Shown piece by piece: positions 31,190 through 63,147 of a stretch of DNA of 64,000 nucleotides; position 1 is the first letter of the stretch; each line of letters starts with the position of its first letter. The notes under the pieces were generated by a model. The model saw only the letters and a program-made list of their open reading frames with translations. It made no database searches and was not told the origin of the DNA. The position numbers and the translations under genes are program-made. Source of the stretch: Sedimentisphaerales bacterium (GTDB taxonomy: Bacteria; Planctomycetota; Phycisphaerae; Sedimentisphaerales; SM23-30); the NCBI GenBank assembly GCA_963663965.2, contig CAXXFK010000020.1, positions 32,001-96,000 of the forward strand, given 5' to 3'.

Positions 31190-31453
31190 GGTTGGGGCGG
31201 GGCACACTTCGTTCAGGCGGGTGGTTCGGGGGCTATTGGGGCGACTTTGGGATTATAGACCGAATTGTTGTAAAGGGCAAATTAAATATTATGTTTTTAT
31301 ATTATATAACATAATATTTCTTGTTTTATATTTTAAAGGCAGATTAATTTCAGGGGAAAATTTGGCGAATCTAATCTTAATGTTTTATTATTTAAAGATT
31401 TATATTGATTTAAGAAGTTGTCAATAAAATAATTTACACTGTGTTTTATAAAG
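31190..31453 (+). repeat. About 260-bp direct repeat upstream of the GH gene, ending in the 35-bp dif-like motif (31419..31453)
   Basis: Collinear with 32930..33186 from GGTTGGGGCGGGGCAC through CGACTTTGG, TAAATATTATGT and TATTATTTAAAGATTTAT to CACTGTGTTTTATAAAG. Confidence 0.85.
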
Positions 31454-31492
31454 TGAATCTGGTAAAATTGCTGATCTTTTAAGGAGTTAACT

Positions 31493-32899
31493 GTGTTTAA
31501 CTGCATGAATGGGATATGCCAGATATTATTTGTCATAATCGGCTTAGTCGGCTCACCTGTTGGCTCTGTACTAGCCGTAATTGTACCGGAGGATACTGAT
31601 CGGATTAGAGAGGATCGCAAGCTTGGTTTTGATCCATTGCCAATCGATTTCGGCGAAATGGTGGGTGTGGTTGTGCATTTTAACCAGGGAGAAACATTAG
31701 ATCACCTGCTGGATTTAAAAGCCTTGGGGGTTAAATGGGTTAGAGATGAACAAAGCTGGTCTCATGTCGAATTAGTAAAAGGGAAATATACCTGGCCGGA
31801 AAATCGGATTAAACGTATGAATTTTTATCGGGAAAATGAGATCAAGGTTATCTTCCCATTGACATACAGCGCGAATCTCAACGCCTATCCCAATGCCCCC
31901 TATGACCCCGTTGGATTCGGCGCATATGCGGTTGCCGCCGCAAAATATCACCAGCAGTTCGGTATTGATGTGGTTTTGGAAATCTTTAATGAACCACATA
32001 ATTTTGGTTTAATGAACCATTTTGGCGGTCCGTGGCAAGGCTCTGCCAACTGCCCCTGGATTGACCATTATATCAAAATGGCCAATCAGGCGATTATCCA
32101 GACAAAAGCGTACGACCCAAATATCAAGTTGATTACTAATGAAGATGTCTGGACCAATCATTATTGGTATCTGGAGGGCAAACTGGATAAACGTCTCGAT
32201 GGATTCGCGATACATCCTTATATCCTTGGAGAGGGTTCATCAGGACCGGAAATCGCCCATTTCGGGCAGGATCCCAATGGCTGGATGAAGGAGTGGACGA
32301 TTATTGATCAAGACCGTTCCAACCGATCTCTGATGCGCCGGCTGAGGGCGCAATATGCCCGGAAAATTGGACGGCCTCTTGATATGTACATTACCGAATG
32401 GGGCTACCCCCTGAACCAGTTCAAAGGCAGCCCATGGGAAGTCACCGAAGAATTAGCCGCCGCGTTCCTTCCTCGTGTTTATATCATTGGTGTTGCTGCT
32501 GGCGCCCGAGTTGTATGCTGGCATTGCAGCCAGGATATGGGTGATGGCCCCTTTGGCCTGATCGGCAATAACCAGGAAAAGCGAAAAACTTATTATGCGC
32601 TGAAAACCATGATTGAAGAGTTGAAAAACTACCAACTGGTAAAACAGATTTCCGGATTGAATATGACCACAACTGGAATTCAAGCTTATTTGTTCAAAGG
32701 CCAAGAAGGATACCAACTGGTTGCCTGGAATATTGAAGGGGACGTTGAAGTTCGGCTGAATCCAGCATCCGAAATGCCCTGCAAAATCATTGACCATTTT
32801 GGCAGGGAATTAAATATCTCTTCCAATTCATTCAAACTGAGCCAAGCCCCGCTCTACATTAAAGGGGTAGGCCTGAATTGCTCCTTATCGGAAAAGTAA
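31493..32899 (+). CDS. Clan GH-A glycoside hydrolase (GH5/GH39-like), secreted
   Basis: LGVKWVRD..SW..VE, EIFNEP (acid/base), FAIHPY, YITEWGY (nucleophile); AAGGAG RBS before GTG. Confidence 0.85.
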   Translation: MFNCMNGICQILFVIIGLVGSPVGSVLAVIVPEDTDRIREDRKLGFDPLPIDFGEMVGVVVHFNQGETLDHLLDLKALGVKWVRDEQSWSHVELVKGKYTWPENRIKRMNFYRENEIKVIFPLTYSANLNAYPNAPYDPVGFGAYAVAAAKYHQQFGIDVVLEIFNEPHNFGLMNHFGGPWQGSANCPWIDHYIKMANQAIIQTKAYDPNIKLITNEDVWTNHYWYLEGKLDKRLDGFAIHPYILGEGSSGPEIAHFGQDPNGWMKEWTIIDQDRSNRSLMRRLRAQYARKIGRPLDMYITEWGYPLNQFKGSPWEVTEELAAAFLPRVYIIGVAAGARVVCWHCSQDMGDGPFGLIGNNQEKRKTYYALKTMIEELKNYQLVKQISGLNMTTTGIQAYLFKGQEGYQLVAWNIEGDVEVRLNPASEMPCKIIDHFGRELNISSNSFKLSQAPLYIKGVGLNCSLSEK

Positions 32900-32929
32900 G
32901 AGGTTTATAAGTTATACCAGCGTTTGGGT

Positions 32930-33186
32930 GGTTGGGGCGGGGCACGCCGGGGATTGGCGGGTGGTTTGAGGGCCATTGGGTCGACTTTGGTATTATTGAC
33001 CGAGTTGTCATAAGAAGAAAAGTAAATATTATGTATTTTCATTGCATAATATTTATAACTTTACATTTTTGTGGTAGTTAATTTTAGATGCAAAGCTCAG
33101 ATGACTTATTCTTAATGATGTATTATTTAAAGATTTATGTTGATTTCAGGTTGTCAACAAAATAATATCCACTGTGTTTTATAAAG
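32930..33186 (+). repeat. About 260-bp direct repeat downstream of the GH gene, ending in the 35-bp dif-like motif (33152..33186)
   Basis: Collinear diverged copy of 31190..31453. Confidence 0.85.
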
Positions 33187-33308
33187 ACCGGCAACCCGCC
33201 TGAGGCGGATCTTCGATCCTTCGGGTTTCGGTAATGCTCATGCGGGCCTGATTGGTGTCGTGTGATGAGGGGATTGTTTGCGGGGGAAAACAGGTGAAGG
33301 AAACAAGT

Positions 33309-33430
33309 GTGGGAATTATGGGAAATATGGGAGTTATGGGACAATTAATTGAGGGCAGATTTGAAATTTGAGATCTGAGATATTAGAAAAATATAACAGC
33401 CAATCAAACCACGGAAAGACGCGGAAAGAC
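33309..33430 (+). repeat. Cluster of short imperfect tandem repeats (9-mer ATGGGARWT x4, 7-mer ARATYTG x3-4, 10-mer RCGGAAAGAC x2)
   Basis: GTGGGAATT ATGGGAAAT ATGGGAGTT ATGGGAC; AGATTTG AAATTTG AGATCTG AGAT; ACGGAAAGAC GCGGAAAGAC. Confidence 0.8.
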
Positions 33431-33433
33431 TCA

Positions 33434-61900: not shown

Positions 61901-62512
61901 GAAGTTGGCGATGGCGGCGTGATCCACCAGATTGGCCAGATCTTCGTAGGGAATGACTTTGACTTTTTGAACTTCATGACTGGTCCGGAAACCATCGAAG
62001 AAGCTGACGAAGGGGACTCGGGTTTTGAGAGTCGCCATGTGAGCGACAGTGGCCAGGTCCATGACTTCCTGCACGGAGCCGCTGGCGAGCATGGCGAACC
62101 CGGTCTGCCGCGCGCTCATGACATCGCTGTGATCGCCAAAGATACTGAGGGCGTGGCCGGCGACGGCCCGTGCGGAAACATGGAAGACCGAGGGCATGAG
62201 TTCGCCGGCAATCTTGAACATGTTGGGGATCATGAGCAGGAGGCCCTGGCTGGCGGTGAAGGTGGTGGTCATGGCGCCGGCGGAGAGCGATCCGTGAACG
62301 GCGCCAGCAGCGCCCGCTTCGGACTGCATTTCGCGCACTTTGAGAACCTGACCAAAAATGTTTTTGCGGCCGTATGCCGCCCAGTCGTCAGCGATTTCGC
62401 CCATATTGGACGAGGGGGTGATCGGGTAGATCGCCGCTACTTCGCTGAACGCGTAAGCAACATGCGCTGCCGCGGTATTACCATCAATTGTCTGCATTAG
62501 CTTATCAGCCAT
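58982..62512 (-). CDS. nifJ: Pyruvate:ferredoxin (flavodoxin) oxidoreductase, homodimeric
   Basis: [41 protein letters not shown], two CxxCxxCxxxCP clusters, [34 protein letters not shown]. Confidence 0.98.
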
Positions 62513-62891
62513 TGAGAAACCTCCGTAAAAAGTCTGTCAAAAAGAAATAGTAAACGGCCTGGCCGTATTATAAACGCTATGTACTTGTTAAAAAAAGAAT
62601 TATAACCAGAATCATTATTCCAATGGAATTGTGGTTCGGTCATAATTTCCTTTGGTTTGTTGCCAAAGAAATAAATGGACTATTCTACTGTTTGCAGGCA
62701 GAGTATGCCAGTGGAAAACCGGGGACGAACGGGCTTGGGGCGATAATTTCCAGCTGTGATGATTAACTGAAGCTGCACTGATACTATCGGCTATAATCCC
62801 AGTTCAATTCACTGATCTTAAAGGTATGACAGTTCCCCCATCTGGAACGAATCCCACAAGCTCACATTCTCAATTTTTGTACACTTGCCAC

Positions 62892-62909
62892 TTGTGCAAA
62901 TTTTCACAG
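62892..62909. promoter_or_regulatory. Rex-like (alternatively CRP/FNR-family) operator at the PFOR promoter
   Basis: TTGTGCAAATTTTCACAG versus the Rex consensus TTGTGAA-N4-TTCACAA (2 mismatches), 5 bp downstream of the -10 box. Confidence 0.6.
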
Positions 62910-62914
62910 AGAGT

Positions 62915-62944
62915 ATTTTAGATAAACATCCACCATCCTGTCAA
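62915..62944 (-). promoter_or_regulatory. Sigma70-type promoter for PFOR
   Basis: Minus strand TTGACA-18 nt-TAAAAT. Confidence 0.6.
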
Positions 62945-63112
62945 GCCCTGCAGGAATCATTTTGCAAATATATTTATTTTCCGTCATTCGAGACGTGGCT
63001 CGGAGAGTCCAATTTGGAAAGAAGCAGGCGCTCGATGACTTATTATCCATAACCCATTATATTTAAATAAGATATGATTGAAAAACCAAAGACTTATTAA
63101 CTTAAGTTTTTG

Positions 63113-63147
63113 TGTCAACCCAATAATATACACTGTGTATTATAAAA
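63113..63147 (+). repeat. 35-bp dif-like motif, copy 4
   Basis: TGTCAACCCAATAA TATACA CTGTGTATTATAAAA. Confidence 0.8.

Follow-up and report, generated by a model that had tools for sequence, protein, structure and literature searches.

The 64,000-nucleotide window analysed here (contig CAXXFK010000020.1 of a Sedimentisphaerales bacterium, G000:C20:32001-96000 in our numbering, within a 7.24-Mb, 42-contig assembly; G000 is the genome under study, G005 and G008 are genomes of relatives, and C numbers denote contigs) carries four copies of a 35-bp repeat of which the genome holds 62. We consider it likely that a 316-aa Y1-HUH transposase recognises this repeat as its terminal sequence (TIR), at or next to which it would cut single-stranded DNA and join it again. 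Judging from the sequence, the repeat is best read as a putative TIRtron end that lost its GGG motif. The observations behind this view are the copy number, placement and orientation of the repeats, the homology of the repeat to the TIRs of classical TIRYT genes, the HUH and Y---NP motifs of the protein, and its TnpA-REP fold.

The four window sites are a real feature. As the first-pass annotation of the window had proposed, they lie gapless on the + strand at 31419, 33152, 54856 and 63113, each with an AAAGAYWTAY box upstream (31394, 33129, 54829 and 63088), and a pattern scan at up to 3 mismatches returned exactly these 4 hits in the window and 0 in 100 shuffled controls. Using an iterated weight matrix, we found 62 copies above 18 bits and 70 above 8 bits in the genome, and the reversed matrix gave 0 above 10 bits. 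The 62 sites are spread over 21 contigs, 33 on the + and 29 on the - strand, and the common orientation reported earlier thus holds within the window and not genome-wide. Their consensus is TGTCAACAAAATAA-TAWA-CACTGTGTWTWATAAAR. The central 6 bp do differ in every copy of the window, as had been said, whereas genome-wide free variation is limited to positions 15-18: 58 of 62 copies have C19, and as many have A20, and the two commonest central hexamers, TATACA (15) and TAAACA (12), account for 27. T22 is the single invariant base in the weight matrix. The locally G-rich strand carries 46 of the 62 sites (p = 1.8e-4), and 22 have a neighbour within 6 kb (500 random draws: mean 5.8, maximum 17). 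With the strict pattern, 0 matches were found among 40 relatives of other genera; the loose pattern gave 14 matches versus 6 for the control in 24 family members, and none of the 13 that were fetched lies near a Y1 gene or the ORF-B gene described below. Pattern scans gave 2 matches in metagenomes, neither resembling G000, and 0 in viral contigs. A short-read contig of one public run, which may be the source sample, covers 31231-33461 without a substitution. The idea of a dispersed, lineage-specific family of mobile-DNA signals is supported by these data.

Flank homology and position divide the 62 sites into 11 adjacent to the transposase gene, 31 in the context of a second element, here called element B (21 of them assigned by clustering and 10 by eye), and 20 solo sites, which have unique DNA on either side and yet score 44-49 bits each.

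The 316-aa protein is a Y1-HUH transposase. It matches PF01797 (27.8 bits, cut-off 23) and, below that profile's cut-off, NF047646; it carries HUH and Y---NP motifs, and residues H64, H66, Y164 and N168 are invariant in 117 relatives. The best match of its predicted model (mean predicted local distance difference test score 88) is TnpA-REP 4ER8 (E 3.9e-6), followed by IS200/IS608 enzymes, and the model has a helical C-terminal part and a helical insertion between the HUH strand and the core helix that follows it. The open reading frame (ORF) is present eight times in the genome, seven times at 95-98% amino acid identity to the query (one copy is frameshifted) and once at 72%. Seven copies are near-identical, and the five intact ones are 96-99.7% alike in nucleotides. 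At E 1e-30, homologs were found in 0 of 300 genomes of the class; genome contigs gave 8 loci, mostly distant. In addition, 242 close homologs of the transposase were counted.

The sites are closely tied to this gene. A site precedes the start of seven of the eight copies, always pointing outward, at 92 bp in six of them and at 45 bp in one; by chance, 0.06% of 120-bp strand windows would be expected to hold a site. The 72%-identical copy also has its upstream site, though the intervening DNA is unrelated. On the 3' side a full inverted site lies 267-318 bp past the stop codon in four of the eight copies, and a damaged one in two. All four inverted pairs of sites closer than 6 kb enclose the transposase gene. 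Homology between the copies ends in the last codons; beyond this point, up to the 3' site, each copy has DNA of its own, one pair excepted. A TTGACA-17-TATTCT arrangement faces the gene, a -10-like box being present at 17 bp in 6 of the 11 transposase sites, and the inner-edge TTGACA may serve as the -35 box of the transposase gene. No target-site duplications were seen by eye at the ends of the transposase units or of element B.

The repeat also resembles the ends of a described class of elements. RAYT-like genes flanked by TIRs, mostly with the motif GGGGWSAS, and dispersed TIR families have been reported, and TIRs without the motif are noted as well (Di Nocera, De Gregorio & Rocco 2013, PMC3733652, in the part of the text available to us); in the available part of Quentin et al. 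(2018, 10.1101/279083) the TIRYTs sit in subclass 2.1, with the long subclass 2.3 nested inside. Read from the outside in, our site is TAC/AAC-ACAG-13 nt-GTTGAC. The 5' TIR of a 222-aa classical TIRYT of the same genome is GGG-ACAG-13 nt-GTTGAC and is identical to the site at 18 of 23 positions without a gap, and three 235-aa TIRYT genes have GGG-TCAG-11/12 nt-GTTGAC. On a whole-locus scan the 11.5-bit match to the 222-aa gene is by itself within the control range; it carries weight because its position is exactly that of the TIR. In G005 the closest homolog of the transposase (47% amino acid identity) lies between 17-bp GGGACAG TIRs at -120/+259, which in our own alignment match the B-type site at 14 of 19 positions; the count of the G005 TIR pattern is at control level. 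Classical TIRYT genes with GGGACAG or GGGTCAG TIRs stand at G000:C13:10936-11604, C28:556358, C11:17830-18520, C30:159530 and C22:74047, and loose 3'-end fragments of the C13 gene occur on C13, C29 and C15.

The family shares with TIRtrons a RAYT-like Y1 gene between TIRs, dispersed single TIRs in the genome, and ACAG and GTTGAC at the spacing of the classical TIRs of G000. It differs in that the TIR lacks GGG and is AT-rich, the gene has seven near-identical copies, the DNA from stop codon to 3' TIR is unique, and half of the TIRs are ends of another element, which has an unrelated gene, and form direct arrays. The TIRtron class itself, named in 2013, is already known. The present variant is marked by an AT-rich TIR without GGG, an enzyme in several copies and a tie to element B and its direct arrays, the last of which appears to be new; a similar TIR could be among the TIR sequences in Figure 9 of Di Nocera et al. 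A literature search under the terms TIRYT and TIRtron found no test of TIR binding or cleavage by the enzyme for any TIRYT.

Based on these features, we infer that the enzyme would bind the repeat, move a unit consisting of the TIR and its own gene, and land near or leave behind single TIRs. Such movement would account for the solo copies and for the fact that each transposase copy is followed by unique DNA. Element B may have taken up one TIR and been moved in trans from that end, and B ends that landed repeatedly by earlier ones would have produced co-oriented arrays enclosing foreign-looking genes, such as that formed by copies 1 and 2 of the window. The features of the window that bear on this are as follows.

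29534..29616, - strand: other end of element B, about 80 nt past the ORF-B stop codon, with a short hairpin; the TGCGC-like end motif is degenerate in the window copy
29617..30456, - strand: ORF-B, 279 aa, one of 26 intact copies (92-97% amino acid identity)
30457..31189, - strand: mosaic leader of element B, with GC-rich REP-like hairpin modules and two tandem units of about 287 bp (30584-31061)
31190..31418, + strand: inner terminal segment of element B, with the AAAGATTTAT box at 31394
31419..31453, + strand: site copy 1, putative TIR and outer end of element B, with a B-type outer half (T27, G35)
31493..32899, + strand: 468-aa ORF between copies 1 and 2, no Pfam/NCBIfam match; presumably glycoside-hydrolase-like, from its NEP and TEWG motifs
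32930..33151, + strand: second copy of the inner terminal segment, with its box at 33129; 76% identical over 266 nt, site included
33152..33186, + strand: site copy 2, another B-type end in the orientation of copy 1, with a diverged copy of the last 230 bp of the element in front of it
54829..54838, + strand: AAAGACATAC box on the inside of copy 3
54856..54890, + strand: site copy 3, solo, unique DNA on both sides, between a Dam-like methyltransferase gene and a transketolase gene
63088..63097, + strand: AAAGACTTAT box on the inside of copy 4
63113..63147, + strand: site copy 4, solo, unique DNA on both sides, 601 bp upstream of a pyruvate:ferredoxin oxidoreductase-like gene

Element B is defined by ORF-B, which is present in 26 copies, all 837 nt long, free of stops and 88.9-96.1% identical in nucleotides. 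Its nonsynonymous and synonymous polymorphism (pN 0.026, pS 0.23, pN/pS 0.11) indicates purifying selection, and about half of the pairs of variable positions are four-gamete incompatible even when less than 50 bp apart, and the copies are therefore mosaic or saturated. The leader is a patchwork of repetitive extragenic palindrome (REP)-like hairpin modules, and a TGCGC-like end motif is found 76-79 nt past the stop codon in 19 of the 26 copies. A 35-bp site lies upstream of 22 of the 26 copies, at 744-4284 bp and always pointing outward (2.2% by chance); of the remaining four, one has a site split by an insertion sequence (IS) and one runs off its contig. The family is very large: a search of 1.84 billion representatives at E 0.001 gave 21,427 clusters, and members occur in 55 of 151 genomes of the order. 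ORF-B matched no family in Pfam, NCBIfam or PHROG; its predicted model, all helical, had no match at E 0.001 in the PDB and viral libraries, the best hits being generic coiled coils (Z 7.2). An Atlas look-up returned unnamed clusters only, and no paper was found in the literature with the motif words of ORF-B. Weak rows for small terminases do not count as evidence.

The association of the site with element B raises the possibility that the repeat is the element's own end signal, recognised by ORF-B alone or together with a host enzyme, and that the transposase merely sits behind the same sequence. B-like sites make up half of the family, and the 26 copies of ORF-B are intact and under purifying selection. 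At locus L025 of another genus (G008:C1:35158-35186) a site-like sequence matching at 27 of 35 positions lies about 160 bp upstream of a distant ORF-B homolog, in the same orientation, and a site is found upstream of 2 of the approximately 15 copies of the related ORF-C family. On the other hand, the site is present at only 1 of 40 loci with ORF-B homologs; the signature these loci share is a different one, a AACGAACCCAA-like DNA motif found at 36 of the 40 and at 0 of 28 controls. In addition, the all-helical model matched no nuclease or recombinase, and the site is homologous to classical TIRYT TIRs. We therefore judge ORF-B unlikely to be the protein that recognises the site. A fragment of a GxxExxY gene adjoins the L025 sequence. 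The ORF-C copies (G000:C27:9874-10923, C1:379229-379936, C30:123912-124580, C22:69127-69912 and about 11 more) end in the same NEPN-coding signature as ORF-B, within short-period repeats.

If the transposase acts on the repeat, the position of its cut is indicated by several features, which we take as hints only. The outer half of the site follows the inner flank between classes (p = 9e-8 and 3e-6), T27 being present in 20 of 21 B sites and in none of the 11 transposase sites (p = 9e-8). Identity among near-identical B ends extends to position 37-39; therefore, the whole repeat usually travels with the element. The first outside G/C falls in an AG step, which is C|T on the other strand, at 22 of 31 B-like, 11 of 20 solo and 4 of 11 transposase sites (background 22%), counts in which the B copies are not independent and the flanks are G-skewed. 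A second motif resembling the outer half occurs within 45 nt of 10 of the 70 sites (background 5.4%). Cleavage by TnpA-REP takes place at C|T, and a 3' C is required for joining (PMC8266576, available part of the text). By analogy, the enzyme might also cut at such a step, for which there are two candidates: C21|T22 within the site, and the outer edge at G35, where the step lies on the other strand. At G000:C29:7345-10144 a B-type site is broken at C21|T22 by 2.7 kb with a gene for 750 aa, followed by a second partial site; the core of the split site is duplicated, and the insert ends in two 3' fragments of classical TIRYTs. A split at C19 in another site was set aside, since it comes from a multicopy insert of 1,544 bp that is unrelated and has an 8-bp duplication.

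The arrangement of the sites suggests that genes may accumulate between them. There are 14 consecutive pairs closer than 6 kb, and apart from the four inverted pairs around the transposase all are direct (10) and lie in B-like contexts. Copies 1 and 2 of the window form one such pair, in which the last 266 nt of element B recur at 76% identity behind the 468-aa gene. Genes outside B-like sites are on the strand of the site in 25 of 31 cases and include an HD-domain/dGTPase-like pair, a PD-(D/E)XK GxxExxY gene, RhuM, SOUL and prepilin-motif genes, and IS110 and ISL3 copies (the ORFs come from a simple longest-ORF caller, so that errors in some neighbours and orientations are possible). The earlier statement that the sites border accessory genes is borne out for the class of copies 1 and 2, where 13 of 28 unique outer genes fall in the lowest fifth of codon use (p = 0.0015), and fails for that of copies 3 and 4, where 1 of 20 flanking genes is atypical on each side; the four window neighbours named as accessory are not atypical either, with codon scores at the 39th-72nd percentile. 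Likewise, the proposed shuffling of genes between sites agrees with the co-oriented arrays and the 10 direct pairs within 6 kb and not with the ordinary genes that flank the class of copies 3 and 4. Ordinary genes also flank the transposase sites, as they do the solo sites. Apart from IS copies and two short segments, the unique cargo outside the sites has no duplicates in the genome. At L153 (G000:C23:62543-66962) two co-oriented sites enclose an HD-domain/dGTPase-like gene split into two ORFs, a 262-aa nucleotidyltransferase-looking ORF and IS110, possibly a defence module. We conclude that the 35-bp sites may help to stack foreign genes. A more far-reaching proposal is that the repeat is an HUH cut-and-join site (C21|T22) that stacks gene modules behind element B, that is, an integron-like array built via single-stranded DNA with ORF-B as a selected cis-acting helper; we regard it as doubtful.

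A number of points weigh against the assignment of the repeat to the transposase. The GGG of the GGGGWSAS motif is missing in 62 of 62 copies. As many as 31 of the 62 sites belong to element B and just 11 to the transposase, and no close homolog of the transposase was found in the genome that has the distant site-bearing ORF-B homolog; on both counts ORF-B could be the cognate protein. One of the eight transposase copies has no site at either end and two have none at the 3' end, no C-terminal helix-turn-helix (HTH) family was detected in the 316-aa protein (Pfam, E 1e-4), and any of at least nine other Y1 genes in the genome could act on the site. Among class B sites, variation on the inner side is linked with positions 15-21 (Mantel p = 0.03) and not with 22-39 (p = 0.65), a test of low power in an element that is mosaic throughout, and exchange inside the site is therefore possible. 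Solo sites favour divergent spacers (13 of 20, p = 7e-4), as a promoter or regulator role would give. Finally, no cutting, binding, circle or empty site was seen, the sequencing runs found being of the same strain: in runs X1 and X3 (one sample) 0 joints at a site were present among the 15 of 37 joints listed, and a read joint between 33216 and 29313 proved to come from another genomic locus.

The preference for divergent spacers (28% expected) bears on the view that the repeat is a site for a transcription factor or nucleoid protein, or a portable promoter kept in promoter regions. An outward -10-like hexamer in 12 of the 20 solo sites, and an outer gene on the same strand at 16 of 20, point the same way. 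However, solo sites carry 44-49 bits where 17.8 would suffice to find 62 places, an inward -10 box is present in 2 of 20 (background 14%), distances to the genes range from 19 to 601 bp, and the site is not conserved in relatives. Nor do the flanking genes, which include purF-, proS-, lipA-, queG-, cysK-, nifU- and truD-like genes by Pfam, form a regulon. We consider such a role very improbable as the primary function, and promoter activity could be a secondary effect of the TIR. The idea of an element that targets the -35 boxes of host genes was dropped, given the inward -10 box in 2 of 20 solo sites. The first-pass annotation had also seen, in copy 4, a sequence one mismatch from the IHF consensus. 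The AAAGAYWTAY-like box is indeed enriched, being present in 18 of 31 B-like sites because of shared descent, in 5 of 20 solo sites (two of which are the defining copies) and in 0 of 4 TIRYT 3' sites (background 0.4-0.7%; the seven TIRYT 5' sites are outside this count). The IHF reading is weak: at no more than 1 mismatch to the consensus, 4 of 20 solo sites match, versus 9.5% of AT-matched spacers. One gene of the HU/IHF family was found in the genome.

The same annotation had interpreted the repeats as Xer/dif-like sites at which tyrosine recombinases shuffle single genes, which we now regard as improbable. The repeat does share with dif and pdif sites a length of about 30 bp, AT-richness and, in many copies, ATAA followed by TATACA, its commonest central hexamer (15 of 62) and that of E. 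coli dif as quoted there. However, a weak dyad at 17.5 (0.46) is exceeded by one whose axis is at 21-22 (0.65), away from the proposed spacer centre. The dif test of Kono et al. (2011, PMC3025954), as given in the available part of that paper, requires that positions 7-12 and 17-22 of a 28-mer form more than 4 complementary pairs, and 1 of the 62 sites reaches this number (6 have 4 pairs and 38 have 3); the same part reports no dif prediction for the single planctomycete tried. The genome has 16 PF00589 matches, the two best of which (356 and 303 aa) look like XerC and XerD by size, but on the contigs that hold sites the nearest match is at least 41 kb from any of them, and the enzyme tied to the repeat is a Y1-HUH transposase. 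A dif site is expected once per chromosome near the terminus (which was not located in the 42 contigs), whereas the repeat has 62 chromosomal copies on 21 contigs and both strands, and in relatives its strict pattern is absent and the 13 fetched matches of its loose pattern lie away from related genes, as given above. Ten direct pairs enclose genes, as shuffling would give, and one site, interrupted by 2.7 kb, has a duplicated core; yet the break is at C21|T22, which is not part of the proposed spacer, and the insert has fragments of classical TIRYTs at its end. In pdif modules the cargo lies between inversely oriented, alternating sites. Here, cargo is enclosed by the 10 close direct pairs only, and the four inverted pairs hold the HUH gene alone. 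The true dif was not identified by pattern, with 475 matches versus 452 for the control in the genome and control levels in five complete relatives. An intergenic sequence with an exact XerD-type arm and a 6-bp spacer at G000:C28:448324-448344 is a candidate, and there is no GC-skew switch at that position.

The transposase reading can also be compared with related systems. With subclasses 2.3 and 2.1 of TnpA-Y1 (available part of Quentin et al. 2018, 10.1101/279083) the enzyme shares Y---NP, its length (316 aa versus a 2.3 median of 325), the helical insertion after the HUH strand, several copies per genome and the lack of REP hairpins. For subclass 2.3 no flanking structure is reported there, and conservation between copies is low, in contrast to the clear TIRs and 96-99.7% identical copies found here; the DnaA-like HTH that marks subclass 2.1.2 was not detected in the protein. 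TnpA-REP and its REPs (Corneloup et al. 2021, PMC8266576, available part; PDB 4ER8) have in common with our system the fold, short dispersed intergenic repeats tied to the gene, and C|T steps, and differ in that our site has no GTAG/GGAG foot and a 4-7 bp AT-rich dyad (0.65) instead of a GC-rich hairpin. The tnpA-REP 2.1 genes among prochlorosin clusters (Laurenceau et al., 10.1101/2020.03.09.984088) are likewise multicopy, with end fragments that punctuate arrays of variable genes, but no inverted repeats were found there and, later, no strong evidence of causation; our system has explicit TIRs, ORF-B and mixed cargo. The integron offers a further comparison. Its attC sites form hairpins, and its integrase gene lies beside the array, whereas the sites studied here are at least 41 kb from any PF00589 match.

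The family is unusually open to testing: the enzyme is present in seven near-identical copies, the 62 end repeats are sharply bounded at 35 bp, there are two candidate C|T positions, and foreign-looking genes stand in arrays. It also links a putative TIR with a protein family that is very large and unannotated, and all of its 26 copies here are intact and selected. Should the arrays be the work of the enzyme, genes would be captured by a route independent of integron integrases and of Xer; otherwise, the repeats would be an ordinary TIRtron family with an odd passenger.

Several further features were noted. Directly on the inner side of copy 3 lies an orphan D12-class adenine methyltransferase gene (window 53881-54774), not atypical in codon use (39th percentile). 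Two truD paralogs (G000:C19:109946-111241 and C20:158004-159275) each stand beside a solo site; they are just 43% identical and give no sign of a site-driven duplication. At 57571-58835 the window has two tandem paralogous, secreted-looking ORFs that end in EPG motifs and have no Pfam/NCBIfam match; we take them to be PEP-CTERM-like. Genes with H-X9-DG motifs and PEP-CTERM-like genes were noted as well. Past copy 2, window positions 33187-33830 combine small palindromes with short-period repeats in a mosaic that has 154 BLAST hits in the genome and whose modules recur upstream of ORF-C copies.

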